Origin: Patescibacteria group bacterium
GTDB taxonomy: Bacteria; Patescibacteriota; Minisyncoccia; Phycocordibacterales; UBA1006
Assembly (NCBI GenBank): GCA_028286885.1
Contig: JAQBQS010000016.1
Coordinates: 70,464 to 134,463 of the forward strand
Direction: 5' to 3'
Length of the DNA stretch: 64,000 nucleotides
The notes under the pieces are model-generated. The model ran no database searches, had not been told where the DNA came from, and saw nothing but the letters and a program-made list of their open reading frames with translations. Positions 2,934-30,773 of the stretch are shown here, in pieces. Made by a program: the position numbers and the translations under genes. Numbering within the stretch: the first letter of the stretch is position 1; every line of letters begins with the position of its first letter.

Positions 2934-2937
2934 CTTC

Positions 2938-2967: not shown

Positions 2968-3001
2968 TTCCGATATATCCTGCGCGTGGTATTATTTCCC
3001 C

Positions 3002-3553
3002 ATGCAAATCATTCTTCCGAATCCGTCGAAAAAGCGGGCTCTCTTCATTGTCGACGTCCAGTCCGGATTTGAAACCAAGCGCGACGCGTGGATTATTCCG
3101 AATGTCGTCGCTCTCATCAAGGAAGGCGATTACGCGCTCTTCGTCGATGCCGTGTTTCACGCCGACAAGAATTCGCTCTGGGACAAGGAAACACGGTGGA
3201 CGATGGACGCGTCGCCGACGGTTCCCGAAATAAAATCGATCCTCGATCCGCATAAAACCGTTTTCGTAACCAAGGAAACCAAATCGATTTGGATTGCCGA
3301 CCCGCATCTCGTCGATTATTTAAAATCAGAAAAAGTCGAAGAGATCCATGTTGTCGGATACGACATCAACGACTGCGTGATGTGCACGGCCAATGATGCG
3401 TTTGATTTCGGATTCTCGACCTATGTGATCGAGGAAGCAGCGGACTCATCCGAATCAGACGATCTTCGAAATGACGCCCTTGCCATCTTGCGCGAGAACG
3501 AGATGACAAACCATTCCGAATTGATCAACGAGAAAAAAATCCTCGCGGACTAA
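3002..3553 (+). CDS. isochorismatase-family cysteine hydrolase
   Basis: ALFIVDVQSGF and VVGYDINDCVMCTANDA (catalytic Cys). Start moved to ATG 3002 because the track ATG at 2951 lies inside the upstream terminator. Confidence 0.7.
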   Translation: MQIILPNPSKKRALFIVDVQSGFETKRDAWIIPNVVALIKEGDYALFVDAVFHADKNSLWDKETRWTMDASPTVPEIKSILDPHKTVFVTKETKSIWIADPHLVDYLKSEKVEEIHVVGYDINDCVMCTANDAFDFGFSTYVIEEAADSSESDDLRNDALAILRENEMTNHSELINEKKILAD

Positions 3554-4778: not shown

Positions 4779-5993
4779 ATGAAGACGATCCGATCATTTT
4801 GGAACAACCAAGACGGCATTCCGCGAGGCGTGCGCGTTTTGACATGGGCGACTTCGGTCCGGTGGATCGGCTGGGGCTTTGCGGAATCCTTGATTCCCGT
4901 GTTTCTGTTCGCATTCGCCAAAACATACGCGTCAGCGGGACTCTTGCGCGGAGTTTACGACATCGCGTTCATTCTCGTCATGCCGATCCTGGGCGTCCTT
5001 GCGGATCGTATGCGCGCGACAACGCTCATCATTATCGGACTAAGCCTTTACCTGGTAGTGGGATCGGGATACCTTCTTGCGGGAGTGACGGGGCTCGCAA
5101 TCTGGATCGTCATTGCAAGGCTTGCCAACGGCATCGGCTACGCGTTCGACGGAATCGGCCGCGAGACGTATTTCCAGCGCCATGCCGCAAAGGAAAAACT
5201 CGCTACCGTTTTCGGCTACTTCGATACGATTGCGAACTTTTGGTGGTGTGCCGCCGGAATCGCCGGAATATTCTTGGTCAAGTTCGTCCCGATCCATTGG
5301 CTCTTGTTTCTGATCGCGCCGACCGTCGTCATCGCGATGTTCATCGTATGGAAATGGGCGCGTCCGACCGATAGTGCGCCAAGCGTCCGCGCGTCCGAGC
5401 GCGCACGCTATCGCGACATCGCCCGCGAATTCGTCACCTGGGACTGGAAATTGAGATCGCTCGTCGGATTCAGCTTCTTTTTGTCGTTTGCAAATGCGAT
5501 CATCGCGTTTTTCCTGCCGATTCAGATGTTCACCGAAGGCGCGGGGTACGTTCCGATCGTCATCATGGGAATCATCCTGACGATTCCGACCATGTTCGGA
5601 TGGTTCCTCGGAAAAATATTCGACAAGCGGGGACCGCGGCTGTTCGCGTACGGGCTCCTCGCGTTTGCGGCCCTTACCGCGGCGCTCGGATTCGCGCATG
5701 CGTATTGGATCCAGATCGCGATCGCGTTCGTCATCGGCGTGATCCAGGAATTGGTCTCGATCGGAAAAGTCGAGCTCATGACGCGCTTCGCGAATCCCGA
5801 GCATATCGGCCGCGTTGACGGAATATCGCACAGCATTTCGGACATGGGCGCGCTCATAGGGCCTCTTGCCGCAGGCGTCATGATTGACGCATGGGGAAAT
5901 CAAATTATGTACGTAGCGCTTGCGTTGCTCCTTCTCGCTCTCTCAGGAGTGCTTGCGTTTGTTGTCCATATTGCGACAGAGGAGACGGCATAA
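4779..5993 (+). CDS. MFS transporter
   Basis: About 12 predicted TM helices; GVLADRMRA-type MFS loop motif. Start at MKTIRSF. Confidence 0.7.
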   Translation: MKTIRSFWNNQDGIPRGVRVLTWATSVRWIGWGFAESLIPVFLFAFAKTYASAGLLRGVYDIAFILVMPILGVLADRMRATTLIIIGLSLYLVVGSGYLLAGVTGLAIWIVIARLANGIGYAFDGIGRETYFQRHAAKEKLATVFGYFDTIANFWWCAAGIAGIFLVKFVPIHWLLFLIAPTVVIAMFIVWKWARPTDSAPSVRASERARYRDIAREFVTWDWKLRSLVGFSFFLSFANAIIAFFLPIQMFTEGAGYVPIVIMGIILTIPTMFGWFLGKIFDKRGPRLFAYGLLAFAALTAALGFAHAYWIQIAIAFVIGVIQELVSIGKVELMTRFANPEHIGRVDGISHSISDMGALIGPLAAGVMIDAWGNQIMYVALALLLLALSGVLAFVVHIATEETA

Positions 5994-14032: not shown

Positions 14033-15143
14033 GGACTCAAAGAGAAAGATCCTCATCGTAGGCGGCGGAATCGCGGGCGTGGCGCTTGCGGATTTTTTAG
14101 ACAGCTCGAAATTCGAGGTCACAATTGCCGAACGCGCGCCCGAGTGGCGGACGATCGGGTACGCGATCGGCGTTTGGGTGAACGGTTTGCGGATCTTGAA
14201 AAAATTTGATTTGCCGGAATCGTTTTGGGACAAATTCGAGCCCGTCGACTCCGGTGCCGTAATCGATTTGTCGGGCAGTCCAATCTCGATCATTACAAAG
14301 GAAATGATCGGAAAAGACACACTTGCGGGGAAAATAGAACGCGATCTGCTTCACAAAGCGCTCATTGGAAAGCTTCCCAAAGAAGTTGCCGTCCGTTTCG
14401 GCGTCACATGTATCGATTTCAAGCAGAAGCCGGGCGGCGTCGCAGTAACATTTTCGGACGAAACCGAGGAAACGTTCGATCTGGTCGTGGGCGCAGACGG
14501 TATGCGTTCGCAAGTACGCGAGAGTATTTTCGGCAACTATCTGAAGTCGTACGGATGGCATGTCATCCTGAGCTGGGCACCGAGGAGTTTCAAGCTGGAC
14601 TCGGACTATTACATCTTAAATGCTCCGGGACAGGTCGTGCTCGCCATTCCGTACGGCGATCGCGTCTCGATCGGATTTTCGATTCCCAAGCGCGGCGAGG
14701 CATCCGCCGAAGATATTTTCAAATCGTTCGAAAAGATCGGTTCGCGGGTCACGGATGTGCTTTCGGCGTTTGATCGGAATCATCTGTTCCATGACGAACT
14801 TGTCCATGTGAAGATGAAGAGGTGGCATCTCGGTCGCGTTGTCTTGATCGGGGACGCGCGTCACGGCATGTCGCCGATTTCCGGATTCGGAACGTCGCTC
14901 GCGCTCGGGGATGCATATGAACTTGCAGCATGCCTTGGCGAATTTCATTCTCCTGATGATGCGCTTGCCGTATTTGCCAAACGCAGGCAAAAGTCCACGA
15001 AATATATTTTCCTTTTTTCGCGCCTCATGGAATCGTTTTTTACGCTGGAATCGAAATGGCTGGTTGCATTGCGGGATCTCTTGTTCCGAACGGGCGCCAC
15101 GAAATTGGCGGCGCGCGTTTTGAGAAAAGCTCTTGATTCATAA
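14031..15143 (+). CDS. FAD-dependent monooxygenase
   Basis: KILIVGGGIAGVALA (Rossmann), GADGMRSQVR and GDARHGMSP flavoprotein-hydroxylase motifs. Confidence 0.75.
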   Translation: MDSKRKILIVGGGIAGVALADFLDSSKFEVTIAERAPEWRTIGYAIGVWVNGLRILKKFDLPESFWDKFEPVDSGAVIDLSGSPISIITKEMIGKDTLAGKIERDLLHKALIGKLPKEVAVRFGVTCIDFKQKPGGVAVTFSDETEETFDLVVGADGMRSQVRESIFGNYLKSYGWHVILSWAPRSFKLDSDYYILNAPGQVVLAIPYGDRVSIGFSIPKRGEASAEDIFKSFEKIGSRVTDVLSAFDRNHLFHDELVHVKMKRWHLGRVVLIGDARHGMSPISGFGTSLALGDAYELAACLGEFHSPDDALAVFAKRRQKSTKYIFLFSRLMESFFTLESKWLVALRDLLFRTGATKLAARVLRKALDS

Positions 15144-15162
15144 TTCTGTTATACTTGCCCCC

Positions 15163-15594
15163 ATGAAAAAGATTGGATTCTTGTATTCCCTTGCTGCGGC
15201 GGCCACATGGGGACTCGTGTACGCATTCGACGACCGCATTTTGGTATCGGTATCTCCTGTGACGCTTTTGTTTCTCGAATCGTTTCTCACCTTCGTCGTG
15301 CTGATTCCCGTTTTCTTCTTCCATCAGGGAGGAGCTGCGGAAATCTCCACCATTTCGACGCGCAATTGGATATTCATCTTGGCGTCCCTGATCCTCGGGG
15401 CGGTTGCGAACTTCTTTATCTTTTCGGGAATCAAGTATCTCGGCGCAGGTCCGGCGTCGATGATCGAGCTTGCGTATCCGCTGTTTGTTGCCCTGTTCTG
15501 CTTCTTTCTCTTCAGGCAGTCGCTTTCAATCTGGGTTGCCGTCGGAGGCGTTTTCATGGTTGCCGGAGCGATGATTATTATAAAACTAGGATAG
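15163..15594 (+). CDS. DMT/EamA-like small transporter
   Basis: 4-5 TM segments; SGIKYLG-type motif. Confidence 0.5.
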   Translation: MKKIGFLYSLAAAATWGLVYAFDDRILVSVSPVTLLFLESFLTFVVLIPVFFFHQGGAAEISTISTRNWIFILASLILGAVANFFIFSGIKYLGAGPASMIELAYPLFVALFCFFLFRQSLSIWVAVGGVFMVAGAMIIIKLG

Positions 15595-15603
15595 AGAATT
15601 GCC

Positions 15604-16188
15604 ATGATCATGAAAAAATCCAATTCAACATACCGAATCCTCGTCGCGGCCTACAGCCTCTCGACATTCTCCGAGGGAATTCTGATGCCGATCTATGCCG
15701 TCTTCGTCCAGAAAGTCGGCGGAGGAATCCTTGATGCAGCAGGCGCTGTTGCGACATTCTATATCGTATGCGGCGTGGCCGAACTCCTGATTTTCAGGCT
15801 CAAGTTCAGCCGCACGCACAGGTTACACCTGATGGTCGGCGGATGGATCATCTGGCTTCTTGGGATTGTCACGTATTTGTTCATCAAGAGCATTCCGATT
15901 TTGTTTTTGGCGCAGATTCTGACGGCGCTCGGAAACGCGGTGGCGGATCCGGCATTCGACGCGGAACTTGCCGAACGGACGGATTCGGGAATGCGCGACA
16001 GCGAGTACGGAACGTTCGAGGCATCCAAGGATATTTTCCAAGGAGTCGCGGCGCTCGTCGGCGGGCTCGTGGTGTTCGCGTTCGGCTTCCGCATCCTCGT
16101 CATCTTGATGGTACTGACAGCGACCGTTTCGTTCATGCTCATCTTGTCGAATTACTGGCACAGGATGAAAAAGGAGAAAATGGGATAA
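15604..16188 (+). CDS. membrane protein (MFS-like 6-TM half)
   Basis: Hydrophobic profile only. Confidence 0.45.
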   Translation: MIMKKSNSTYRILVAAYSLSTFSEGILMPIYAVFVQKVGGGILDAAGAVATFYIVCGVAELLIFRLKFSRTHRLHLMVGGWIIWLLGIVTYLFIKSIPILFLAQILTALGNAVADPAFDAELAERTDSGMRDSEYGTFEASKDIFQGVAALVGGLVVFAFGFRILVILMVLTATVSFMLILSNYWHRMKKEKMG

Positions 16189-16222
16189 GATAAAACCCGA
16201 AACAATTGTTTCGGGTTGTGTT
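16189..16222. terminator. bidirectional terminator
   Basis: Perfect 12+12 palindrome aacccgaaacaa/ttgtttcgggtt flanked by A and T runs. Confidence 0.65.
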
Positions 16223-16223
16223 G

Positions 16224-17990
16224 TCATGAGTCGAGAAGCACTTCTTCCTCGGCGGCAACTTCCGGCGAGGTGAGCATCTTGTAGTAGATGCCGTCCCTGT
16301 CGAGTATCAGCGCGTCGTGGTTTCCGTCCTGGATGATTTTTCCCTTGTCCAAGACGATGATCCTGTCGCATTTCTGAATCGTTGAAAGCCTGTGGGCGAT
16401 GACGACGATCGTTTTGCTGTCGAAGCCGCTTTCGATGACGCGCTGTATTTCGCGCTCTTTCATGTTGTCGAGAGCCGATGTCGCCTCGTCGAGAATCATG
16501 ATGAGCGGATTGCACAAGAATACGCGGGCGATTGCGATGCGCTGCTTTTCGCCTCCCGAGAGAAGCGTTCCGCGCTCGCCGACTTTGCTGTCATAGCCGT
16601 AGGGCAGCGTCAGGATGAAGTCATGGATTCCCGCGCGTTTGCAGGCGTCGTGGATTTCCTCGTCGCTTGCGTCCGGTTTTCCGTACGCAATGTTTTCGCG
16701 CAGAGGCCGGTGGAACAGTTCGACGTTTTGCGAAACGCCGAGTGCGATTTTTTTGATTCCGTCCATGGTGATGTCGGTCCTGATGCAATAGTCGCCGATC
16801 CAGATGTCGCCCTCGGTCGGGTCCATTTCGCGCAGAAGAAGCTTGGAAAGAGTCGTCTTTCCTGAGCCCGTCTTGCCGATGATCGCGACTTTCTCGCCGG
16901 GCTTTATATCGAGATTGAAGTCCTCGAATATAGGTTTGCCGGGAAGATACGAAAACGACATGTTTCTGAAGCGGATCGAAGCCTTGCTTTGGTCGATAGC
17001 CGGATTCGAAATTGCGCCGGGCGCGTTTACGAGTTCCGACCGCATGTCGATGATATCGATCATTTCTCCGGCGTCTCCGATAGCTCGGGTGAGCTTGCGA
17101 AGGCCTGAGCCGAACGTCCACAAGGACTCGGAAAGATTCGAGGAGAATGCCATGACGAGGACCGTTTGTCCCGGAGTGAATGCTCCTTTTCTCCAGAGCC
17201 ACATGCTTACGAAAAGCGACGTGGCGTGGATGCCGCTGGTGCAGAATCTCTGCAATGCGTTTTGCGTATTTGCAAAATTCCACGATCTGAGGAACGCCTC
17301 GTAGTGCCTTGTAAGGATAGACTGGTAGTTTGACTTCTCCCGCGCATGCGCGCCGAAGAGTTTCACCGTCGACATGTTTGCGATGGTATCGGCAAATCTG
17401 GCCGTTACCTTGGACTCGAGTTCCGCTTCGGCGTATCCGAGCGCCAGTCGGCGCTTGAAGGTCGTTGTCGTAATGATTACGAATACGACGATCCAGAACA
17501 GATATCCGAAAAACATGTACTTGGAAATGGTCAACGCCACAACGCTCAGAATTCCGATCATTTGAATGGTCACGAACAGCGCACTGCTTGAAACTTGCTC
17601 ATAAATTTCCTCTCCCGAGGAAATCAGGCGCTTATTCTTGGCAATGAACGATCCGGCCTTGTTGACGTTGAAGAACTTCATCGATTGCCGAAGAAGGCTT
17701 TCGAAGCTGATCATGCGGAGCTTTCGGGCCTGTTCGGACTGAAAGCGCCCTGATTTGAAGTCGCCGACGCTCAAGAGAGCTTCTTTTGCGGCGTACGAAC
17801 AGACGAATGCGATCGCCAGCGCTTCCACGTAAGTCTTATGGCCTATCATGGCGTCGATAAGATTCTGTTGGAGAAGAGGGCGGAGCAGTCCGTTTGCAAG
17901 ATACGAAACAAAAAAGGCGAGTACGGCATACCATCCGTATTTTCTAATGCCGTCGGCAAAAAGCCAATACCGGCTAAGGATTTTTCTCAT
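16224..17990 (-). CDS. ABC transporter, fused permease/ATPase (MsbA-like exporter)
   Basis: GKTGSGKTT Walker A, LSGGEKQRIAIARV signature, ILDEATSALD Walker B, and an N-terminal 6-TM domain. Confidence 0.85.
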   Translation of the reverse strand: MRKILSRYWLFADGIRKYGWYAVLAFFVSYLANGLLRPLLQQNLIDAMIGHKTYVEALAIAFVCSYAAKEALLSVGDFKSGRFQSEQARKLRMISFESLLRQSMKFFNVNKAGSFIAKNKRLISSGEEIYEQVSSSALFVTIQMIGILSVVALTISKYMFFGYLFWIVVFVIITTTTFKRRLALGYAEAELESKVTARFADTIANMSTVKLFGAHAREKSNYQSILTRHYEAFLRSWNFANTQNALQRFCTSGIHATSLFVSMWLWRKGAFTPGQTVLVMAFSSNLSESLWTFGSGLRKLTRAIGDAGEMIDIIDMRSELVNAPGAISNPAIDQSKASIRFRNMSFSYLPGKPIFEDFNLDIKPGEKVAIIGKTGSGKTTLSKLLLREMDPTEGDIWIGDYCIRTDITMDGIKKIALGVSQNVELFHRPLRENIAYGKPDASDEEIHDACKRAGIHDFILTLPYGYDSKVGERGTLLSGGEKQRIAIARVFLCNPLIMILDEATSALDNMKEREIQRVIESGFDSKTIVVIAHRLSTIQKCDRIIVLDKGKIIQDGNHDALILDRDGIYYKMLTSPEVAAEEEVLLDS

Positions 17991-18215
17991 GTTTGGAATT
18001 ATTTAGGTTTTGAAATAGCGATTATTTGATTAAATCATAGCATTTTTTGCATAAAAAGTCAAATGGCGGGTCGGTTTTAACAGCAACCATCGAAAACTTG
18101 TCAAGGGTAAAAATATGTGGTTTTGAGCACTTTTTGATCTTCTTGGCTAAAATTAGAAAAGCTTTATAAAATAAGGCTTATTTTCCAATTTTAAGCGTAA
18201 TACCACATAAAAAGC

Positions 18216-18244
18216 TTGACAGCAAGACTTGGATATGCTATCAT
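18216..18244 (+). promoter_or_regulatory. sigma70-like promoter
   Basis: TTGACA-17 nt-TATCAT. Confidence 0.5.
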
Positions 18245-18375
18245 GCTTACATGTCTGAATTGCAGGCATTTTTCTTTCCCTGAGATATTTCCGCAGGTGC
18301 CATCTCGGCAGCCACGCGAATACCGCAGGAAAAGACTCTACCACCAATGTGTTTGACGGAGCGAAACCGTCATCT

Positions 18376-18996
18376 ATGTCCAATAAATTCACATTCTATC
18401 GTCAGATGGCGCTTGGGTACACCCTCATCGTCGGTCTGTGCATCGGATTAATAACCCCGATCGCGCAAGCAGAGGCTCCAACTGACACGTTATATGCAGC
18501 GTCCCCTACGTCAACCGTTGTCGATGGGCTTACCCAGGAACAGCGAGCGGCTAAAATCGACGCATTCTTCACATTACGCGACAATTCACCGCTTGCAGGC
18601 GAAGGCCTGACATTCGTGAAGGCCGCGGACACATACGGTATCGACTGGAAGCTTCTTCCTGCGATTGCGACCATCGAGTCCAACGGAGGAAAAATGCTCT
18701 GTTCGAACCCGAAAGGTGCGAACAACCCCTTCGGTTTCGGCTCATGTAAGGTCCCTTTCAAGGACTTTGACGAGGCGATCGATACGGTTGCCAAGAACCT
18801 TGGCGGATATAATCCGGCAACGGAAGTCCATTACAAGGACAAGTCCGTAAGCGAGATTCTCGAAGCTTACAACCCTTCGTCAATCCGCCCCGACTACCAG
18901 AAATTGGTCGGATGGGCGATGAAGAAGATCGCTTCGACCGATGCCTCAGTGCTTGTGGCTACCGTCTCAACTTCTTCGCAGCTTGCGATCAAGTAA
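18376..18996 (+). CDS. secreted peptidoglycan-hydrolase-like protein (glucosaminidase / lytic transglycosylase-like)
   Basis: Signal/TM, then GIDWKLLPAIATIESNGG motif. Confidence 0.45.
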   Translation: MSNKFTFYRQMALGYTLIVGLCIGLITPIAQAEAPTDTLYAASPTSTVVDGLTQEQRAAKIDAFFTLRDNSPLAGEGLTFVKAADTYGIDWKLLPAIATIESNGGKMLCSNPKGANNPFGFGSCKVPFKDFDEAIDTVAKNLGGYNPATEVHYKDKSVSEILEAYNPSSIRPDYQKLVGWAMKKIASTDASVLVATVSTSSQLAIK

Positions 18997-19010
18997 AAAA
19001 GAACAGCCAA

Positions 19011-19050
19011 TAAAAAACTCCTTCGCAGCAATGCGAGGGAGTTTTGGTTT
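19011..19050. terminator. bidirectional terminator
   Basis: ctccttcgc-agcaat-gcgagggag with A and T runs on both sides. Confidence 0.55.
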
Positions 19051-19279
19051 ACAAAGACAATGTCATTTGATGTACGCCGTTCCAATTTTCGTTGACTTTC
19101 CATGTGTAGTTGTCCGACTGGCCGACTTGTTCCCATGTAATGGAATGCTTCGTGCCATGTGCCAAGTTATAGAGTCCGACTCTTTTATTGACCATGCATT
19201 TTTTTCTTGTACTGCATTGCTTCTTGTCGAGTTTCAGAAATTCCAAGAATTCCGCAAGCGTAAGTTCGGCTGCTGCCAT
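19049..19279 (-). CDS. small hypothetical protein (76 aa)
   Basis: ORF only. Confidence 0.3.
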   Translation of the reverse strand: MAAAELTLAEFLEFLKLDKKQCSTRKKCMVNKRVGLYNLAHGTKHSITWEQVGQSDNYTWKVNENWNGVHQMTLSL

Positions 19280-19443
19280 ATCCGATGAATTTGATGAAGA
19301 AATTATTTAATAAAACTTTATCTTTTCTTTAGATACTTGTCAAGTTTTAAATAATAGTGTATCGGGACAATACTGTGGATTTCTCGGAAGTGATATACTG
19401 AATGGACAAGAAGCGCGCTAATATCGTTTTCTTGTACACTTCT

Positions 19444-19806
19444 ATGAACATTGCATTCAAGGGACTGCGCATGCCACTTACGGATGAAATGAAAAAGCAT
19501 GTTCGCACCGCTCTCGCACCTCTCGAAAAAATCCTCCCTGACCATGTTCACGTTTATGCCGAGGTCGGGAAAACTTCCAACCATCACCGCTCAGGAGACG
19601 ACATCTACCAGGCATCCATTACGCTCGATACCAAAGGCCACATGCATTTCGCAAGCGTTACCGACGGCGATGCGTACAAGGCTATCGATCGTGCCGGACT
19701 TGATATTGTAGAATCTGTTAAACAAAACCGTGGACGCAAGCAAACGCTCGCGCGACGCGGACGAATGATTATTAAACGACTAACCAAATCTGCTTTCTAT
19801 GAGTAA
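19444..19806 (+). CDS. hpf: ribosome hibernation promoting factor (short HPF / RaiA family)
   Basis: MNIAFKGLRMPLTDEMKKHVRTALAPLEK...ITLDTKGHMHFASVTDGDAYKAIDRAGLDIVESVKQNRGRK. Confidence 0.75.
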   Translation: MNIAFKGLRMPLTDEMKKHVRTALAPLEKILPDHVHVYAEVGKTSNHHRSGDDIYQASITLDTKGHMHFASVTDGDAYKAIDRAGLDIVESVKQNRGRKQTLARRGRMIIKRLTKSAFYE

Positions 19807-20476
19807 TGCCTGGAAAATTATTATTGGAATTATCGTGGTTGCAATTGTTGTGCTCGCTGTTTATTTCGGAGTGCGATCGAACGCAAACCCCACCCCGGCC
19901 CTCCCCTTAGCAGGGGAGGGAGCCGCAACAACAGGCACCGTGCCAGCTGACACCTCGACAAATGCAAAACCTTCAGCTAATGTAAAACCCATGAATTATA
20001 CCCAAGCCACATTCCATACATCCCTCGGAGATTTCACGATCGCGCTCGATACTGCAAATACGCCAAATACGGTTGAAAACTTTACCAAGCTCGTGTCAAG
20101 CGGATTCTATAACATGACCAAGTTCCATCGCGTCATTGCCGGATTCATGATCCAGGCCGGAGACCCTCAGTCAAAAGACGATTCGCTGGCTGACCGATGG
20201 GGAACAGGCGGCCCGGGATACACGTTCGCCGACGAAATCAAGTCGACCAATGCCGATGTAAAGGGAACGATCGCGATGGCGAACGCGGGACCCAATACCA
20301 ACGGATCGCAGTTCTTCATCAACGTTGCTGACAACACATACCTCAACACTAAACACACCGTGTTCGGCCATGTAACATCCGGATACGACGTTGTTGAAAA
20401 AATAAGCTCGGTTCAGACAGGGCAGAATGATCGCCCTGTGACGCCGGTCGTGATCGAATCAATTGCATTGAAATAG
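19799..20476 (+). CDS. ppiB: cyclophilin-type peptidyl-prolyl cis-trans isomerase with N-terminal membrane anchor
   Basis: FHRVIAGFMIQAGDP...GYTFADE...GTIAMANAGPNTNGSQFFI...HTVFGHV. Overlaps hpf by 8 nt. Confidence 0.85.
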   Translation: MSNAWKIIIGIIVVAIVVLAVYFGVRSNANPTPALPLAGEGAATTGTVPADTSTNAKPSANVKPMNYTQATFHTSLGDFTIALDTANTPNTVENFTKLVSSGFYNMTKFHRVIAGFMIQAGDPQSKDDSLADRWGTGGPGYTFADEIKSTNADVKGTIAMANAGPNTNGSQFFINVADNTYLNTKHTVFGHVTSGYDVVEKISSVQTGQNDRPVTPVVIESIALK

Positions 20477-20480
20477 TTTT

Positions 20481-20517
20481 CATAAAAAATATCCACACTA
20501 GATGGATATTTTTTATG
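20481..20517 (+). terminator. AT-rich 15 bp perfect hairpin after ppiB; its 3' arm contains ATG 20515
   Basis: cataaaaaatatcca-cactaga-tggatattttttATG. Confidence 0.45.
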
Positions 20518-20571
20518 AAACGAATTAGGTTAATCCAGGGATTCATATATAATTATAGATACTCTTTTTCT

Positions 20572-23500
20572 ATGAATGCTCTTTCTCGATTAACAAAAAC
20601 GAAATATTTCTTTGCAGGAATGATCGTTGCTGCGATCGCAGGGTATTCGCTGTTAGTCTATGCTGCCGCGCCATCCGGAGGATATGCGCCGGGAGCGACG
20701 CTGAACCCAGACTGCGGACCGAATGATACGGACTGCGCAGTTAATTTGCCCACGGGGGGGGGGGTGGCAGCTTTCAGGCAATAGCGGGACAAGTTCAGCG
20801 AGTGATTTTTTAGGAACAACGGATAATCAGCCTCTTGTATTTAAAGCCAATAGCTCCGAAGCGATGCGCATTCTTGCCAACGGAAATATCGGAATAGGAA
20901 CACCGACGCCGACGGCTTCATTGTTTATTCAAAAAAAGCCGGGAACGGTTCCGTTTGTCGTACATGATTCTGATTCCAATCCGAGCCACATCCTCTTTGG
21001 AGTTTCGGAAAACGGAGACCTTTCAAGCAAGGGAGATGCGCAGATCGGCGGCAACGCATTTGCAAATGGCGTAGGCATCGGCATTTTTTCCTCGCTTCAA
21101 GCGCGGCTGCACATCGTTGCCGAGCAAACGACGTCAGGCGGAAGCCCTTCGTCCATCAGCTCTACGACCTACCATGGCGGAGGCGGCGAACTTGCCGATG
21201 CGACTGTCGGCGGAAACTATACAGGAACCACGGACTGTACGCTTGCTGTGGGCATTGCCGACACGGCTCCTGGAAATGGGCATACAAACGACACCTTCGA
21301 ATTCGGACCCGTCTCGGGAAGTTGCACGGGTATCAGCGGCGGATCGCCGGTGGAAATTACGCCCGGAGTTCCGCAGGCAATCGGGAGCAGCGGAGTTACC
21401 GTCACTTTTGCGTCGGGAACGGGACACACGCCGCTCGACATGTCGTCCGGTATCGACCATTACTATTCTGCCGACATTACGGCCGGCACGGCAGGAACTG
21501 TTATCCCCGGCGCTGATCCTTTTCTCATCAGCAATAGCGCGAGCGATACGCTTTTCAAGGTTGCAAACGACGGCACGATTACGATCGCGGGACTCGACTA
21601 TGTTTTTCCGACAAGTCCTTCAACTTCATACGGCGATGTCCTGACCAATGACGGATCGGGAAATTTGTCATGGGCTCCTGCGAGCGGAGGAGGCGGAATC
21701 GGAAGCCAAACCTGTTCCACGGGCCAGTTTGTTACGGGATGGAACGGTTCGAATTTTACGTGCGACACTCCGTCGGGCGGAGGCGGTGGTTCTTCGCTTG
21801 TGGGGCTGACTGACTCTAACAGTACATGGCTTGGCGTCGGAGCGGGAGACAATGCTGCGACAGACTTGACTACGTTCATTGGTCTAAATGCTGGTAGTGG
21901 TGCAACAGATGCCGTAGGTTCGACCTTCATCGGAAGGGTTGCAGGATCTAATTCCGCAAATGCGGCGCATGCTATCTTTATTGGTGATGCAGCCGGTTAC
22001 AACGACAGTGTTAGTAATGGATTATCGGACAGTTCGATTCTGATCGGTAATTCGACTTCGACAGGAGGCTTCTCAAATTCGATTGCTATCGGCAAGGAAG
22101 CCGCGAACACAGCTGCGAACCAGTTCCTCATTTCAGATAGCATTTCAAAATTTGCATTTCCAGGTTCCAAGGCGTTCGGGATAGGTACCAATTCCCCCAC
22201 GGCGGCGCTCGATGTCGTCTTGCCGAATCCTTATTACACGTATCATCAGCGATTTACCGGCGCAGGAGGCACCGGAAATCCTAATAATGACGCAACGTTT
22301 TCAGGAACATATACAGGATCTCATCCCGATGACGTTTTCACAGTAACAATCGATTCAACAGGTTCTCCAGATACGTTTTCGTGGTCTGATAGCCGAGGTG
22401 ATGGATCAGGATCCAATGTCTCTATCACAGGCGGATCTCAAACGCTCATTGATGGGATCAGTGTTCAATGGGGCAGTACGACCGGTCACACGATGGGAGG
22501 AGGCTCTTCGGGAACCACGGAACTTACCGTCGGAAATTCGCCAGCCTTTCAGATTCGCGGCGCTTCCGGTTCGCCATACTTTGCCGTGAACTCGGTTGTT
22601 AAGGGCAGTACGTTTATCGGCGAAGAGGCGGGAATCGGTGCGACAAGCGCAACAGATTCCTTCTTCACCGGATACCAGGCAGGAAACGGCGCGACCAATG
22701 CCTCTCTTTCAATCTTTACCGGTAACTCATCAGGACTTGGCGCTACCGATGCCTTCAATTCGATCTTCGTAGGTGTTGAAGCGGGTTATCAGGCAACGAA
22801 CGCGAGCGGTGCAAACTTCATCGGCGATGGTGCAGGATTCACTGCCGCGCATGCTGCCAATTCGAATTTCATCGGCAAGAATGCCGGATTCGATTCTGCA
22901 TATGCTACAAATTCGACCTTTATCGGACGTCAAGCAGGATATCAGGTTGCGACGAGCAGCAGTTACGATTGTGTCGCGGATGTCATGAATCCTTGTTTCA
23001 GCAGTCTCATGATAGGAGATGGTGCAGGATATAACGCTACCGATGCGCACAACTCGCTCTTTATCGGAAACGGAGCCGGTTATTTAGCAAACGCGGCAAA
23101 TAATTCACTGTTCTTGGGAAATGCGGCAGGCAGCAGCGCGACAAGCGCCAAGTATTCTACATTCGTAGGAGAAGGCGCAGGATCAAATGGAACCTATGCA
23201 ACAGCTTCGGTATTTATTGGAAGTGGGGCCGGGTATCTCACAGCGCAGGATAGCGCTTACGGTACCGATTACTTTTACGGCACTTATATCGGTTACAATG
23301 CGGGATACGGGGCGACGGATTCGCACGAGTCGAACTTCATAGGAAAGCTCGCCGGGTATAATGCTGCCAATGCGATCAATTCGAACTTTATCGGTTCGGA
23401 GACGGGTAAGGAATCAAATGCGGATAATGCGAACTTCATCGGTACGGCCGCAGGCTGGCTTGCAACGAATGCAAATAACTCAACCTTCCTCGGAGCAAGT

Positions 23501-24586
23501 ACGGGGTTCCGGGCCAGTAATTCAAGCGATTCATTCTTTGTTGGTACGAATGCCGGAGCTTATGATAACAATCTCACAGGTACGCAAAATGCCGCCCATT
23601 CAATCTTCATCGGTACAAATGCCGGATATACGACCGCAGACCACGCTTTGGATAACACCCAAGACCCAGATGACTATTCGATCCTGCTTGGAAACAATAC
23701 CTCGACAGGAGGATTCAAGAACTCGATTGCGCTTGGCGGGAACGCCACAAACACCGCATCAAACCAGTTCATGATCGGTTCGACGGCTCGTCCGATCAAC
23801 TCGATTGTGATGAACAGTACATCTCAGACCGGATGTACGATCGTTGCAAGCGGAATCTCGTGTTCGTCTGACCAGAGACTCAAGACAAACATTGCAGACT
23901 TGCCAACAAACGCACTTGATACGCTGACGAAGGTTCGAACGGTTACATACAATTGGATCAACCCGGCGGCAGGCCAGGATCAGAATCTTGGATTTATCGC
24001 TCAAGACTTGCAGCAGTACTATCCTCAGCTTGTTTCAGTAGGCGCAGGCGGATACCTCCAGGTAAACTACGCCGGAATTACTCCTGTCTTGGTGCAATCG
24101 ATCCGAGAACTCAACTTGAAACTTGTCGACATCCAAAAAGTCGCCGATGCGACGGATAAGACATTCTTGAACAATCTGATCGCATGGTTTGCATCATCGG
24201 CAAACGGAATAGGAGATTTGTTTGCAGGCTCGATTCATGCCAAGGATACCGTTTGCATCCAGGATGTCTGCGTGACGAAGCAAGATCTTCAGAATTTGAT
24301 AAACGCGCGAGGGCAGTCTGTCATCCAGCCCGTGCCTCCGGTGACGGTAACGACCTCATCCGGCAATGAATCTGCAACCGATTCATCGGCGCCTGTACAA
24401 GAAGACCCATCGGAAACCGTTTCCGACACGGTAAATTCAGATTCAACAAGTTCAGAACCCGTTATCGATCCGATAGTCTCATCGGACGCTTCGGGAACTG
24501 TTACAACCGACACGACTGGTACGGGTCCGTCAAGCGATACGTCAACACTGCCAGCATCATCGGATGCATCTCCGGCCATTGAATAA
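20572..24586 (+). CDS. giant secreted beta-solenoid fibre protein 1 with C-terminal tail-fibre-type intramolecular chaperone/autoprotease domain; reading frame interrupted at a poly-G tract
   Basis: Signal peptide, then VYAAAPSGGYAPGATLNPDC (frame 1). After the G11 tract the protein continues in the +1 frame for 1287 codons. It has 17-aa SxFIGxxAGxxA repeats and ends CSSDQRLKTNIADLPTNALDTLTKVRTVTYNWIN...LGFIAQDLQQYYPQLV...ITPVLVQSIRELNLKL (S74-like). Confidence 0.7.
20754..20764 (+). repeat. G11 homopolymer causing a frameshift (possible slipped-strand phase switch or assembly error)
   Basis: cac-ggggggggggg-tgg. G10 or G13 would fuse the signal-peptide ORF to the 1287-aa ORF. Confidence 0.8.
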
Positions 24587-24587
24587 T

Positions 24588-24613
24588 AAAAAAGCCAACG
24601 GGGCTTTTTTATT
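24588..24613 (+). terminator. weak terminator after fibre gene 1
   Basis: aaagcc-aacgg-ggcttttttatttg. Confidence 0.4.
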
Positions 24614-24640
24614 TGAAAAAACAAGGTTTCAAGGTATACT
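24613..24640 (+). promoter_or_regulatory. sigma70-like promoter of fibre gene 2
   Basis: TTGAAA-16 nt-TATACT. Confidence 0.5.
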
Positions 24641-24663
24641 GTGCTGAGCAATTTCCTCAACGC

Positions 24664-27600
24664 ATGAATTTTTTCTCATTCAAAAATAAATATGCACTCA
24701 CGACGCTCGCGATTCTCGCGCTTGTTTCATATTCGTTCATCGTTTACGCCGCCGCGCCATCGGGCGGATACGCTCCGGGCGCAACGCTCAACCCTGACTG
24801 TGCGCCGGGGAGCAGTGTTGATTGTGTTGTAACTCTTCCCACAGGTTCCGGACTTATCGGTTCGACGAGCGGCGTGACAAGTTCGCCGACTCCTTCGGGA
24901 ACCCGTTTTGAAACATGGCTTGGACAGAGGGCTGGTTTGAATGCGACCACTGATCACAATGACCACACGGTCCTCATTGGGGTAGATGCAGGAAATGGTA
25001 CGAACTACGATTTCTATTCCAATTTTATCGGAGCAGAGGCAGGAATGAATACGAGTAGTGACAATCATTCGAACTATATCGGCTATCAGGCTGGTAAGAA
25101 TACTTCAAATTCTTATTATGCGAACTTCATAGGGTATGGCGCGGGTGATGGATCAAACGATGCCATAGGATCGGTTTTTATTGGTGCTGTTGCAGGTAAA
25201 AACGCCAGCGGTTCGGCTTCTTCTACGTTCGTCGGAAATGGCGCGGGCATCAATGCTCAAAATTCGATAAGCTCGGTATTTCTCGGGGATGCTGCGGGGT
25301 ATGGCGCTTCCGATGCGTCCCTTTCGGTATTTATTGGAAGCCAGGCAGGCATAACCTTTTCAGGCGGCAAGAAGGCCCATGCAATTTTCATCGGCGCTAC
25401 TTCTGGATTCAATGATCAAGTTGATAACGTCACGACTCCGGGCACTTCGATTTTGATCGGAGAGGGCACTTTAACGGGCGGCCATTCCAATTCCATAGGT
25501 CTTGGTACCAATGCAGTAAACACCATGTCCAATCAGTTTCTGGTTGCATCATCATATGTCAATTGGCAGATTGCCGGTGTTGATTATGTTTGGCCGACAT
25601 CACAGGCAGCAGGAGCGGGATATGTGCTTACCAACGATAGTGCTGGTAATTTGTCATGGGCGCCGGCGGGATCAGGTAGTGGAACGGTATATGACGACAA
25701 GCAGATTGTGTTCGGCGACGGTTCTACTGCAGGCGGCGTGACAAGTCCGAACTTTCTTTGGAACAATTCGAGTTCGCGCTTCGTAACGGCGGGAGCTTCA
25801 GGCGCCGAGCCTGTCATTGACGCTGACTACCACAGCGGATTACCGATTGTCACGATAGGAGCGAACGGATATGGAAATGAAACTAATCTCTTTCTTTCGG
25901 ATAACCACGGGACGGCCCGCCTCGGTTCCTCGCTCCTTCAATCTCAATTATCCATAACAGGAGACATGGGGCTTGCCCAGCTCGGTGATGGATTTGGAAT
26001 GGGAAACAATACTCTGCTCACCGTCAATGACGGTTCGCAATTCATCACTCTTGCCGCATCAACAGGGACCCTGATCCAGGATAATGTCGGAAACACTTGG
26101 TTGAACGTGAATCCGTCCGGATCAACAGTATCACTTGGAAATCTCGGCGCTCCTTCGGGAACGACATTTACAATAGACGATGTTGGCGAGAGTTATACAT
26201 TTTCAAAACCAAACTTCGCCATCAATGGAGTTAATTACATTTGGACTGGGAGCCAGGCAACAAGCTACGGCGATGTTTTGACGAACGACGGATCAGGAAA
26301 TCTGTTTTGGGCGCAGCCTCCGGGTGGTGGTGGAATAGCATCTCAAACATGTTCAGTTGGCGACTTTGTAACTGGTTTCGACGGAACCAACTTCAATTGT
26401 GGTGCGGGAGGTTGGTCATTAACCGGCAATGCCGGAACGGATGGAGGAACGACAAATTTCATCGGTACGACCGATGCGCAGGATTTCGTCATCAAGACGG
26501 ACAGTTTAGAAGTCGCTCATTTCTACAATGACACGTCGGCTAATTCTTACAGCATTTCACTTGGACAGGAAAGTATAGCCACGGACGCTGGAATGTTCGT
26601 AGCGGGAGGGGGTGCAGGAACCAACTCAAGCACTTCGGCCAATTCGATATGGATGGGAAACAGCACAGGTTACAATACCGACGGGGCTACCAGTTCAATC
26701 TTTATCGGTGATACCGCAGGTCAATATGCTGACAGTGCGAACGATTCGGTATTTATGGGAACCGCGGCCGGAAACAACGCGTCCAGTTCGTTTACTTCCA
26801 ACTTCATCGGCTACAATGCCGGGAACGGAGCCGCATCATCTGAAGATTCGAACTTCATCGGTACTCATGCCGGAGATGCTGCGTCAGGTTCGCATCGTTC
26901 CAACTTTATTGGAGCCTATGCAGGTCAGAACTCGACGGGTTCAGGCGAGTCAAACTTCATCGGATACTATGCCGGTTATGGTGTCACAGGCGCGTTTGAT
27001 TCCAACTTTATCGGAGGGAGTGCAGGATACGGAGCCGATCAGGCCAACCAATCCAACTTCATCGGTCCGAACGCAGGATATAACGCGACAAATGCTAACC
27101 AGTCCAACTTCATAGGAGGACAGGCGGGGCAGGATGCGCAGTATGCGTCTTTCTCATCTTTCATGGGATACCAGGCCGGTTATGGTGCAACTTATGCAGC
27201 AGATTCAGTCTTCCTCGGAAGAAATGCCGGGCAGGATGCGGCGGCTGCATCTAATTCAATCTTCGTCGGAAAGCATGCGGGACAGAGCGCGTCGAATGCC
27301 TCCAATTCAATTTTCATCGGATATAATTCGGGAAGCGGAGATTCCGTTGACAACACCTTCGGAGACTCGTCGATTTTAATCGGTAACGGTTCCTTAACCG
27401 GAGGGTTTTCAAACTCGATCGCACTCGGAACGAATGCGACCAATACTGCGGTCAACCAGTTCCTTATCGCGCCGTCATATGTAAATTGGCAGATTGCCGG
27501 AGTGGATTATGTTTGGCCAAACGCTCAGGCGGGAGGTCCTGGATATGTTTTGACGAATGATGGTTCTGGAACATTGACATGGTCCACAGGTGGGGGGCTC

Positions 27601-28905
27601 ATTGGTTCTACGAGTGGAATTACCAATTCTCCAGTTGCGGGTGTTACAGAAGAGACATGGCTTGGTGCTGGCGCAGGATCAAGTGGAGCAGAGATGGAAA
27701 ATACGGTGTTTATTGGAGTAAATGCAGGATCAGGTGCGGCGGGAAGAAGAGGTATCATCATAGGTAGAGATGCAGGAGTTAACAGTGTCGGCGGCAGCAA
27801 TGTATTTATTGGAAACACGGCAGGCAATAACGCCGTCGCAGGAGGGGCTACGTTTATTGGTGATGGTGCAGGATTGAATTCAACCCTCTCAAGCGGATCA
27901 ATCTTCATGGGTCGACTAGCAGGTAGCGCAACAACAAATGCTACAGGATCAATTTTCATCGGACAGCAGGCAGGAGAAGGAGATACGGTAGACAACCTTA
28001 CCGTTCCGGGAACTTCGATTTTGATCGGAAACGATACCAGAACGGGCGGTTATTCGAACTCGATTGCCCTTGGAAAAAGCGCAATCAACAGCGCGACTAA
28101 TCAGTTTATGGTCGGCTCCTCGTCAAGCCCGATCGATCAATTCGTCATGGTAGGAAGCGGCGGGGCAACCTGTTCGCTCGACGCCAATGGAACGTCATGT
28201 TCATCGGATGAACGGTTGAAGACAAACATTAGCGACCTTACAACAAACGCGCTTGATACGTTAACAAAAGTTCGAACGGTTACGTTCAATTGGATAAATG
28301 GTGCTGACTCAAATCAGCATCTCGGATTCATTGCTCAGGATATACAGCAGTTCTACCCGCAACTTGTTTCAACAGCTTCAAACGGATACCTGACAGTAAA
28401 CTATGCGGGCATTACGCCAGTATTAGTAGAATCGATCCGCGAGCTTAACTTGAAACTGATCGATATTCAAAACTTTGCGGCAGCGACTGACAAGACGTTC
28501 TTGAATACGCTGATCGCATGGCTTGGAAATGGGGCGAATGGAATTACGGATCTGTTCGCGAAGAACATTCACTCGGATTCAGTGACGACCGCGCAGCTAT
28601 GCGTAGGATCGACATGCATCAGCGAGACAGACCTTCAAAAGTTTAAGACATGGGAAGCGTCCCAGCCACAGACACCTCAGGTTTCTCCATCAGGAGGAGG
28701 ATCTTCAGATCCAGCTCCAAGCGGTGACAGTCCTGCGCCGTCTGACAATGCTGATACGTTGACACCTGATGCAAGTCAGGACGGCGCTCCGGTTGTAGAT
28801 GCTCCGGCAGACTCGTCGTCTTCGGATCCTGTTGCGCCAAGCGCTCCGCAAGACAGCGGTGCGCCAGCGCCTGCACCGAGCGACGCTCCGGCAGTCGCGC
28901 AGTAA
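24664..28905 (+). CDS. giant secreted beta-solenoid fibre protein 2 (about 1413 aa) with C-terminal tail-fibre-type intramolecular chaperone/autoprotease domain
   Basis: Paralog of fibre 1 with the same N-terminal FIVYAAAPSGGYAPGATLNPDC. More than 10 tandem 17-aa SNFIGxxAGxxA repeats. C-terminus CSSDERLKTNISDLTTNALDTLTKVRTVTFNWIN...LGFIAQDIQQFYPQLV plus a Pro/Ser/Asp-rich tail. Confidence 0.75.
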   Translation: MNFFSFKNKYALTTLAILALVSYSFIVYAAAPSGGYAPGATLNPDCAPGSSVDCVVTLPTGSGLIGSTSGVTSSPTPSGTRFETWLGQRAGLNATTDHNDHTVLIGVDAGNGTNYDFYSNFIGAEAGMNTSSDNHSNYIGYQAGKNTSNSYYANFIGYGAGDGSNDAIGSVFIGAVAGKNASGSASSTFVGNGAGINAQNSISSVFLGDAAGYGASDASLSVFIGSQAGITFSGGKKAHAIFIGATSGFNDQVDNVTTPGTSILIGEGTLTGGHSNSIGLGTNAVNTMSNQFLVASSYVNWQIAGVDYVWPTSQAAGAGYVLTNDSAGNLSWAPAGSGSGTVYDDKQIVFGDGSTAGGVTSPNFLWNNSSSRFVTAGASGAEPVIDADYHSGLPIVTIGANGYGNETNLFLSDNHGTARLGSSLLQSQLSITGDMGLAQLGDGFGMGNNTLLTVNDGSQFITLAASTGTLIQDNVGNTWLNVNPSGSTVSLGNLGAPSGTTFTIDDVGESYTFSKPNFAINGVNYIWTGSQATSYGDVLTNDGSGNLFWAQPPGGGGIASQTCSVGDFVTGFDGTNFNCGAGGWSLTGNAGTDGGTTNFIGTTDAQDFVIKTDSLEVAHFYNDTSANSYSISLGQESIATDAGMFVAGGGAGTNSSTSANSIWMGNSTGYNTDGATSSIFIGDTAGQYADSANDSVFMGTAAGNNASSSFTSNFIGYNAGNGAASSEDSNFIGTHAGDAASGSHRSNFIGAYAGQNSTGSGESNFIGYYAGYGVTGAFDSNFIGGSAGYGADQANQSNFIGPNAGYNATNANQSNFIGGQAGQDAQYASFSSFMGYQAGYGATYAADSVFLGRNAGQDAAAASNSIFVGKHAGQSASNASNSIFIGYNSGSGDSVDNTFGDSSILIGNGSLTGGFSNSIALGTNATNTAVNQFLIAPSYVNWQIAGVDYVWPNAQAGGPGYVLTNDGSGTLTWSTGGGLIGSTSGITNSPVAGVTEETWLGAGAGSSGAEMENTVFIGVNAGSGAAGRRGIIIGRDAGVNSVGGSNVFIGNTAGNNAVAGGATFIGDGAGLNSTLSSGSIFMGRLAGSATTNATGSIFIGQQAGEGDTVDNLTVPGTSILIGNDTRTGGYSNSIALGKSAINSATNQFMVGSSSSPIDQFVMVGSGGATCSLDANGTSCSSDERLKTNISDLTTNALDTLTKVRTVTFNWINGADSNQHLGFIAQDIQQFYPQLVSTASNGYLTVNYAGITPVLVESIRELNLKLIDIQNFAAATDKTFLNTLIAWLGNGANGITDLFAKNIHSDSVTTAQLCVGSTCISETDLQKFKTWEASQPQTPQVSPSGGGSSDPAPSGDSPAPSDNADTLTPDASQDGAPVVDAPADSSSSDPVAPSAPQDSGAPAPAPSDAPAVAQ

Positions 28906-28928
28906 AAATTCCCGAAAGGGAGTTTTTA
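28906..28928. terminator. short GNRA-loop hairpin terminator between convergent genes
   Basis: ttccc-gaaa-gggag-ttttt, with the complementary T-run on the other strand. Confidence 0.4.
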
Positions 28929-29372
28929 TATTGCAAATAAAAAATCCCCTCGGTCGAGAAGGGATCTTGAAATAGTTGTCTGTCTCACGACGCGGACGAT
29001 GCACTTGGCTCCGTTGAGGATCATGACGGCATATCCTACTTGGTATTTTTCGTTCTGACTCGGCAGATAGCGCGCATTGATGAGGGGTTCCTCCATGATC
29101 GCTTTTATTAAATGCGAATCAGGGCTTGAAATTTCAAAAAAAGCGTGCATTGTTTCGGTCTTGGTGCTTTCTCTGTATCGCCCGACCATAATCGGCTTGA
29201 TGACATAGAGCGGCCGGAACGATCCGACTTGCAGCGAATCAAAGCGGCCCTTAGCGGTTATGTGCATGATATCGTCATCGATCCGGATGGAGTCCATCAG
29301 TTTCGGGTAATCTTGCGCATGCATGCAATTCGAAGTTCCAAAGAATAAAAGGGCAAGGAGCAGTTTTCTCAT
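28926..29372 (-). CDS. secreted hypothetical protein (148 aa)
   Basis: N-terminal signal peptide MRKLLLALLFFGTSNCMHA. Confidence 0.45.
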   Translation of the reverse strand: MRKLLLALLFFGTSNCMHAQDYPKLMDSIRIDDDIMHITAKGRFDSLQVGSFRPLYVIKPIMVGRYRESTKTETMHAFFEISSPDSHLIKAIMEEPLINARYLPSQNEKYQVGYAVMILNGAKCIVRVVRQTTISRSLLDRGDFLFAI

Positions 29373-29449
29373 CGGGAATGGTTTTTGTTTGGAACAAAGA
29401 TACCATCTTTTTTATGGATTATCAAGACGATCGGAATATTTTCATTTAG

Positions 29450-30286
29450 TTACCCGAACCATTGCGATTCTTTCTCGCCTTCGCGCACAACGCGCTCGAT
29501 AATAAACTTCGCGTTTTCAAATCGCGCCTTCGTTATTTTTACGCGCTTTCCGTTTTGGAAAAAGTGGATTCCCGGCCACGGCTGATACGCCCGGTATTTT
29601 CTCCAAAGGATTTCCGGATCGTCATTCATTGGATCAATAAGGCCATCTTCTTTTTTCGTCTTGCCGCAGTGCGTCATGTTCGTCTCATCCTGCTCGACGA
29701 GAATTTGCTCGCCGCGTTCAAATGCGGGAATGGCATACTCGGCAAGAAGCCGTCCGCCGATTGCAATGAGTTTTGCGCGCAGGCTTGGCGTCGTGTCGTC
29801 GGCTTCGATGGGAATGCGTTCCTCCGCGACGATCGGTCCCGCGTCCAATTTGAAAACCATTTTTTGGATGGAAACGCCGGTTTCTAAATCTCCCGCCAAA
29901 ATCGCTGCCTCAACCGGTGTTGCGCCTCGCCATCTGGGCAAGAGGGAATAGTGGATGTTCAACGTGCCGAGATTCGGCAGGTCGATCAGTTTCTGCGGCA
30001 GGATTTTTCCGTAGGCAACGACGATGAACAAGCCTGCATTTTCAGCCGCAAGCTTTTCCATAACCTCATCCGTGATTTTTTCCGGCTGCAAAACAGGAAT
30101 ATTGTTTTCGTCCGCCCAAACTTTCGCCCTACTTGGCGTCATCGTGAAATGGCGTCCGACGGGCCGGTCAGGGCTTGTTATAATCAAACTTGGCATGTAT
30201 CCGTGCTCCTTCAAAATTTCCAAGGTTTCGGATGAGACGTCAGGCGTTCCGAAGAAGACGAAATTGAGTTTTTTGGATTCTTGCAT
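29450..30286 (-). CDS. fmt: methionyl-tRNA formyltransferase
   Basis: FFGTPD...NIHYSLLPRWRGATPVEAAI...; formyl-transferase fold with C-terminal domain. Confidence 0.85.
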   Translation of the reverse strand: MQESKKLNFVFFGTPDVSSETLEILKEHGYMPSLIITSPDRPVGRHFTMTPSRAKVWADENNIPVLQPEKITDEVMEKLAAENAGLFIVVAYGKILPQKLIDLPNLGTLNIHYSLLPRWRGATPVEAAILAGDLETGVSIQKMVFKLDAGPIVAEERIPIEADDTTPSLRAKLIAIGGRLLAEYAIPAFERGEQILVEQDETNMTHCGKTKKEDGLIDPMNDDPEILWRKYRAYQPWPGIHFFQNGKRVKITKARFENAKFIIERVVREGEKESQWFG

Positions 30287-30383
30287 AGAGCGTATTGTAC
30301 AAGAAAACGAGGAGGGGATTACTTGACAATGTCTTATAAAATAGATAATCTGGCTTTAAATTACGTTACTAAAACAAAATAGC

Positions 30384-30773
30384 ATGATGTTAGGATTACA
30401 TACCTATATTGCCACACGACAGGTTCAGATAACTGATCCATTTGGAGAAAGTGTGTTTCCTTCTCTTGTCGAGCTTTTAAAAAGTTCGGAAAATCAAAAA
30501 GTACTTCGCCATGTTGGATTTCGAAAAGGCAAAAAATACCGGGATATTGTCGATGCACTCTTGTGTGAGGCATTCCCCGATTTTCTTGATCCCTGCCTGC
30601 TTTTCTATAATGGAGGGGGTCCGAAACTTTCCGAGATGAAAACGACCCAAGAACTCATCGAACTCGAACAGATGCTTTTGAAAGTTATTAAAATTGCCGA
30701 ACAATTTCAATCAGAGCAAAAGATAACTTGGATTTCATTCCGATTGAAGGCATCTCAAAAACCGAACTTATAG
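30384..30773 (+). CDS. hypothetical protein (129 aa)
   Basis: ORF convergent on def. Its stop lies inside a strong terminator hairpin. Confidence 0.4.
   Translation: MMLGLHTYIATRQVQITDPFGESVFPSLVELLKSSENQKVLRHVGFRKGKKYRDIVDALLCEAFPDFLDPCLLFYNGGGPKLSEMKTTQELIELEQMLLKVIKIAEQFQSEQKITWISFRLKASQKPNL

Follow-up and report, generated by a model that had tools for sequence, protein, structure and literature searches.

Surface genes of Campylobacter jejuni are switched by N-terminal poly-G tracts, where nine G's leave a gene on and ten turn it off (PMC8713573). Poly-G tracts of 7-11 G also occur in receptor-binding proteins of Fletchervirus, as stated in a passage of PMC12633550 that cites Sorensen et al. 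2021 (Cell Rep 35:109214), a study also cited in PMC8713573. Within the Candidate Phyla Radiation (CPR), the nearest reported case is a Gracilibacteria genome with a hypervariable gene that carries a 9-mer repeat (PMC6851277). Here we describe a 64-kb stretch of DNA from a Patescibacteria group bacterium (contig JAQBQS010000016.1; this whole stretch is referred to as the window), in which the reading frame of a gene for a tail-fibre-like protein, fibre gene 1, is broken at 11 consecutive G's (G11). On balance, we lean towards a slipped-strand poly-G switch that was captured in its OFF state.

The locus resembles cj1421, cj1422 and cj1426 of C. jejuni and pilC, hpuA and hmbR of Neisseria in its tract, which falls in the G8-G13 range and lies in the 5' part of a surface-related open reading frame (ORF), where one G more or less switches translation. 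In both cases the genome has few other G/C tracts, and the tract of Neisseria pilC is found in the signal-peptide region. Unlike those loci, the one described here belongs to an uncultured patescibacterium, shows one tract in 64 kb, encodes a member of an S74 tail-fibre-like family and is known from sequence alone. In Campylobacter Fletchervirus, poly-G tracts in receptor-binding proteins reportedly produce subpopulations with different attachment specificity. Fibre gene 1 likewise carries a long G tract inside a fibre-type gene, and its product is phage-tail-fibre-like, with an S74 chaperone domain and similarity to tail fibre genes of phages. It differs from the Fletchervirus genes in being chromosomal in a cellular genome, with PPIase, fmt, signal peptidase I (SPase I) and HisRS as neighbours, in the position of the tract at the junction of signal peptide and body, and in having a predicted function. 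The Gracilibacteria gene is also a repeat-driven locus of the hypervariable type that encodes a predicted extracellular protein in a CPR bacterium, but its 9-nt repeat is in frame and varies protein length and sequence with no on/off frame shift. Finally, fibre 1 shares a C-terminal S74 domain, an S-D-x-R-x-K motif and a long Gly/Asn-rich repetitive body with phage S74 tail fibres and tailspikes and with bacterial tail fiber domain-containing proteins. Unlike them, it has a predicted N-terminal Sec-type signal followed by an AAPxGGYxPGxTLNPxCxP...C module, and there is no phage context.

The initial annotation had described an 11-G run that splits fibre gene 1, and direct reading of the sequence confirms the run and its coordinates (Table 1). 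The upstream ORF (ORF-A), which begins MNALSRL, indeed ends 20 nt past the run, extending from the ATG at 20572 to a TAG at 20782-20784. Its residues 1-31 are predicted to form an export signal, with a basic n-region, FFAGMIVAAIAGYSLLVYA as its hydrophobic core and V-Y-A ahead of A32. The conserved module AAPSGGYAPGATLNPDCGPNDTDCAVNLPT follows, ahead of the tract. Read through the tract, this frame gives ...DCAVNLPTGGGVAAFRQ and then the TAG, whereas the +1 frame across the run reads ...PRGGGWQLSGNSGTSS... and, as had been claimed, is open over 1,287 codons (20723-24586). The body starts with WQLSGNSGT..FLGTTDNQPLVFK, which is conserved in relatives, and continues with Gly/Asn-rich NxxFIGxxAG repeats. 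GenBank splits the locus, on a contig of 140,526 nt, into two hypothetical proteins: JWM20_946 (70 aa) and JWM20_947 (20864-24586, from an internal ATG, 1,240 aa).

The two annotated proteins are one gene. A reconstruction with ten G's aligns without frame change to eight single-frame relatives, with invariant residues both before the tract (V29, A31, P46, C48, P50, C55 and V57) and after it (W65, L67, G69, N70, T73, F79, G81, T82 and D84). The reconstructed junction peptide of the G10 protein spans ...NLPTGGGWQLSGNSGTSSASDFLGTTDNQPLVFK, and the tract itself then reads ACG GGG GGG GGG TGG, or T G G G W. The tandem paralog, fibre gene 2, crosses the equivalent junction in a single frame, as the initial annotation had stated (...VTLPTGSGLIGSTSGV...), and its PTGSG is written ACA GGT TCC GGA, without a homopolymer. 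G10 is most likely the ON length, because the segment PTGGGWQLSGNSGTSS of the G10 reconstruction matches the paralog's PTGSGLIGSTSGVTSS in length.

The frame arithmetic is that of a translational on/off switch. The tract begins 182 nt into an ORF of ~4 kb. In silico, tracts of G7, G10 and G13 yield a single ORF of 1,336, 1,337 and 1,338 aa, respectively, which upholds the proposal that G10 or G13 would restore a full-length protein and adds G7 to it. Tracts of G8, G11 and G14 yield products of 69-71 aa, and G9 and G12 yield products of 79-80 aa; the two OFF frames thus reach a stop 6 or 16 codons past the tract. Contingency loci have tracts of hypermutable length (about eight or more G/C), and G11 lies above this length. 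Gain or loss of one unit in the 5' part of this ORF would switch expression. The locus has the tract length, position, frame logic and outlier status of the contingency-locus class.

The outlier status is evident from the window itself. G/C runs of lengths 3, 4, 5 and 6 number 740, 116, 16 and 1, a drop of about seven-fold per extra base, and then there is one run of 11; no other G/C run in the 64 kb exceeds 6. There are no C runs of 6 or more in the window. Extrapolation from the window's own run-length decay predicts that 64 kb would hold ~1e-4 runs of 11 or longer. Shuffles that preserve dinucleotides are far more permissive than this extrapolation, and 2 out of 100 contained a run of that length or longer. 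The sole other G run of 6 lies in fibre gene 2 (27589-27600; GGT GGG GGG, in TGGGL); adjacent GGG codons are seldom used.

The tract is not forced by the protein or by composition and is over-represented relative to both the background and coding need. GGG is the rarest Gly codon, at 7-10% of Gly codons: fibre 1 has 16 among 179, three of them inside the tract, fibre 2 has 21 among 213, and sixteen further genes together have 42 among 578. All eight of the other poly-Gly stretches of 3-5 residues in fibres 1 and 2 are written in mixed GGA/GGC/GGT codons. The closest relative of the N-terminus (locus L002), which is 47% identical over residues 1-117, shares the linker LPGGGSGW and writes it CCA GGT GGT GGT TCA GGC TGG. 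Because GGG is so rare, and because these other stretches and the linker of the relative use mixed codons, the protein sequence does not require the tract.

Fibre gene 1 is predicted to encode an exported, phage-tail-fibre-like protein that may act as a surface adhesin. The C-terminal Peptidase_S74 match scores 58.4 bits against a Pfam cut-off of 22. Fibre 1 carries the motif CSSDQRLKTNI and fibre 2 the motif CSSDERLKTNI, which we take to hold the catalytic Ser...Lys dyad at the autocleavage site of endosialidase chaperone domains. In 276 phage records, tail fibre and tailspike genes are 27-31% identical to the last 328 residues of fibre 1, and relatives carry the annotation 'tail fiber domain-containing protein'. 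Searches of the fibre against NCBIfam and of PDB sequences gave no matches.

In the N-terminal module (N-module) of the family, a basic n-region precedes a hydrophobic core of 19 residues, V-Y-A/AAP and then xGGYxPGxTLNPxCxP...C. A 64-position profile of this module, run against 1.84 billion cluster representatives, recovered 1,190 proteins at E<=1e-3, so public protein data widely contain the tail-fibre-like family that carries this conserved export module. When the 64-aa N-terminus served as query in a homolog search, the self-match alone came back, within the limit of the word index. N-module motifs also recovered 31 genome loci whose titles are mostly Patescibacteria-group metagenome-assembled genomes (MAGs), including Paceibacterota, Saccharibacteria, Kaiserbacteria, Minisyncoccia and others. 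Fibres 1 and 2 share ~70% identity in the C-terminal ~290 residues and 31-40% in the body, a divergence pattern typical of variable receptor-binding proteins.

Table 1 Features of the fibre locus, with positions in the 64-kb window
Feature	Position	Strand	Description
18-bp perfect inverted repeat, 7-nt loop, A/T-rich	20478-20520		Arms 20478-20495 and 20503-20520, 100% complementary
TATAAT hexamer	20548-20553	+	Candidate -10 box of fibre 1, 19 nt 5' of the ATG
ORF-A (GenBank JWM20_946)	20572-20784	+	70 aa: predicted signal, conserved module, GGG from the tract, six out-of-frame codons, TAG
G11 homopolymer	20754-20764	+	Frameshift point, proposed slipped-strand switch
Fibre 1 body	20765-24586	+	1,273 codons in the +1 frame, from W (TGG at 20765) to the stop
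Peptidase_S74 domain	23867-24034	+	Intramolecular chaperone of endosialidase/tail-fibre; E=8.6e-16, residues 1049-1104 of the 20723 frame
12-bp perfect inverted repeat with T run	24585-24613	+	Directly 3' of the fibre 1 stop, terminator-like
TTGAAA-16-TATACT	24613-24640	+	Promoter-like, 10/12 consensus matches, ahead of fibre 2
Fibre gene 2 (JWM20_948)	24664-28905	+	1,413 aa, tandem paralog with the same N-terminal module and an S74 C-terminus, one frame

The fibre genes are found among genes for PPIase, a ribosome hibernation factor, fmt, SPase I, HisRS, NusA, PGK, RecJ, ComEC and EF-Tu. These housekeeping neighbours make the context chromosomal and rule out a prophage origin. The inverted repeat between the PPIase stop (20476) and fibre 1 looks like a terminator that would shield fibre 1 from upstream transcription. 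A promoter scan found no full sigma-70 match on the + strand near the fibre 1 start, and no good -35 accompanies the TATAAT hexamer. The promoter-like site ahead of fibre 2 suggests that fibre 2 is transcribed independently. Because terminator-like hairpins flank fibre 1 and this site precedes fibre 2, a switch in fibre 1 would leave fibre 2 unaffected. Scans of the window for tRNA genes and Rfam families found nothing. Four tandem paralogous ORFs of 160-165 aa are encoded just 5' of EF-Tu (55117-57415, + strand); they share 29-36% mutual identity and have no NCBIfam match.

We propose that fibre gene 1 is a single gene of a CPR bacterium with a hypermutable poly-G tract in its coding sequence. 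The tract sits in a Gly-rich linker, with the signal peptide and the conserved Cys module upstream and the fibre body downstream. Slipped-strand mispairing during replication would add or remove G's. With G10 (also G7 or G13), the gene would be ON and encode the full 1,337-aa pre-protein. With G11, translation would stop six codons past the tract, and the 1,273-codon body would remain untranslated or be made without an export signal. The consensus of the sampled population would then be OFF. Low-level +1 slippage on GGG-G, or slippage of RNA polymerase, may make this state leaky. Fibre 1 alone would be toggled while the paralogous fibre 2 stays expressed, which could give the cell a variable repertoire for its surface or for host attachment. 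We infer that tract length varies in the population and that switching is reversible.

Loci related to the fibre genes (~440 kb) were scanned for G/C runs of 7 or more, and a few runs were found away from the junction. A distant family member (L049; JGI contig Ga0247841_10033002) carries an in-frame G10 at 3596-3605 (GTT GGG GGG GGG GTT, VGGGV), 1.5 kb into an open fibre ORF of at least 1,089 codons that extends from 2081 as far as the contig does. The same contig has a G8 at 1918-1925, ~155 nt 5' of the fibre ATG, with no Rfam family over the region. Apart from these two, no further G/C run in the 34 metagenome loci reaches a length of 8. A Kaiserbacteria MAG (CAVYCR010000005.1) has a C8 at 5803-5810, which lies 75 nt 5' of the start codon (ATG at 5885) of a fibre homolog with 1,700 codons and ~20 nt 5' of a TACAAT hexamer. 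Canonical -35/-10 promoter spacing could not be assigned at either this C8 or the G8. Two C9 runs, in loci L018 and L028, were rejected as fibre-gene tracts since both fall outside fibre genes.

Short N-module proteins were examined as possible OFF-state fragments, and none showed a homopolymer frameshift. P0100, from two identical Logan sequences (ERR10643339 and ERR10643340; 65-2581), was rejected because it is cut by in-frame TAA codons. This single-frame fibre gene has TAA at 248 and 1343, the first exactly at the position of the relatives' invariant Trp after the N-terminal module, and is probably a pseudogene. P0212 (ENA ERZ23498641 scaffold_792554, 244-662) was rejected because its genome appears to recode TGA: in-frame TGA codons of this fibre N-module ORF stand in for the Gly of relatives (CAP-G-DTDC), as would fit a TGA-recoding (code 25-like) lineage. 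P0195 (L071) was rejected because the genes on its contig are mostly short fragments. The remaining short proteins have normal fibre sequence to the last residue and are probably cut by contig ends. Beside another fibre homolog, P0004 (JGI Ga0558716_06456, 634-3035), a gyrA-like gene with DNA_topoisoIV domains is called as two pieces of 179 aa and 603 aa.

Several observations weigh against a phase-variable tract. No variation in tract length was seen, and the collections searched hold a single strain, sample and contig. A junction DNA pattern with a variable gap had 0 matches in JGI metagenomes, and the predicted G7-G10 and G12-G14 products are absent from a 15-billion-protein collection by exact look-up. 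Each protein of the fibre locus was found on one contig only; exact look-ups of neighbouring proteins returned the same Logan sample or nothing, and the source species is absent from the GTDB-scan loci, where the best match is 47% identical. The initial annotation had suggested checking orthologs for the same tract. A homopolymer is found at the junction in 0 of 65 related loci and in none of the best 150 of the 1,190 N-module proteins; the relatives compared share 60% identity or less and are not true orthologs. A tract conserved with varying length was thus not found among these distant relatives. The visible 64 kb contain one such tract, so a genome-wide phase-variable set is not seen there. 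The consensus state is OFF, which has the same appearance as a pseudogene. The initial annotation's phase-variation reading stands as to one gene split at the run, an exported fibre-like product and an outlier tract, and it finds no support from a relative with a tract at the junction.

The out-of-frame consensus appears in two assemblies, the GenBank MAG and a Logan contig of SRR13312974, a run whose accession had 0 matches in papers. The gene may be a recently fixed pseudogene, in which a +1 G slippage inactivated fibre 1 and the population lost it, with fibre 2 sufficing and no adaptive or frequent switching. We regard this as unlikely, although both assemblies are out of frame, no relative has a tract at the junction and a redundant paralog adjoins the gene. 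The two in-frame TAA codons of the Logan homolog, one at the same junction, indicate in addition that fibre genes of this family do decay. Against this, the 1,273-codon body has no further lesion and its S74 domain is still significant; with the body fully open, any inactivation is therefore recent or reversible. Poly-G tracts in Campylobacter and Neisseria keep slipping, and a G11/G10 tract would be expected to do the same, which would make a fixed state hard to maintain. A tract made of the rarest Gly codon, in proteins whose other poly-Gly stretches avoid G runs, also argues against simple decay. Somewhat less probable still is an error in the consensus length, with a true tract of G10 (or G13), an intact gene, and a G11 that arose from homopolymer miscalling or PCR stutter. 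Long homopolymers are error-prone in sequencing, and the perfectly intact body is what an intact gene would show. The Logan contig is 100% identical to window positions 14381-30476 over 16,096 nt, G11 included. An assembler-specific error is unlikely, as two different assemblers gave G11, and the absence of differences in the rest of the 16-kb overlap indicates accurate reads. A read-level bias could still underlie this agreement because both assemblies very likely come from the same reads. Reversible-terminator chemistry counts homopolymer bases cycle by cycle and its stutter favours contraction, which would speak against a spurious extra G if such a platform was used here. A chimeric join or a poly-G read-end artefact is ruled out by flanks that are colinear with homologs up to the tract. 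A length error would in any case alter the observed state and not the nature of the locus: G10 is still hypermutable, and the 5' part of a fibre gene would still hold a poly-G tract that is both long and out of character.

Programmed recoding is highly improbable. In this reading G11 is the functional form, and ribosomes that shift to +1 on GGG-G, or RNA polymerase that slips on the G run, produce the full-length fibre. The sequence would allow tRNA-Gly to shift its pairing to the +1 frame at any point of the run, GGG codons are rare in these genes, and classical +1 suppression of the sufD class acts at GGG-G. Yet all homologs examined are single-frame, so the shift is not conserved. The downstream RNA folds worse than shuffled sequences (z = +2.5) and offers no stimulatory structure, and neither a stop nor a hungry codon lies directly at the shift site; the stop follows six codons on. 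Known bacterial transcriptional slippage uses A/T runs, whereas this run is of G. The conserved shift and stimulatory element expected of a prfB-type programmed frameshift or of transcriptional slippage thus do not appear in the sequences compared.

The slipped-strand switch, which we favour over these explanations, would bear on a poorly understood part of CPR biology. Host recognition and attachment in CPR/Patescibacteria are largely unknown, and most of these bacteria are uncultured. We tentatively suggest, with less confidence than we place in the switch itself, that an ultrasmall CPR bacterium, likely attached to other microbes, toggles one of two tail-fibre-like surface proteins by a poly-G switch. 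This might serve as bet-hedging over host attachment or surface antigenicity, as Campylobacter phages diversify their receptor-binding proteins. A search of the literature on phase variation together with Patescibacteria or the Candidate Phyla Radiation found no homopolymer example. If the switch is real, this would be, as far as the literature was searched, the first description of a homopolymer contingency locus from the CPR. It would mark these fibres as surface structures under fluctuating selection, whether on host range or from phage or predator pressure, and phase variation would join the short list of known CPR adaptive mechanisms.

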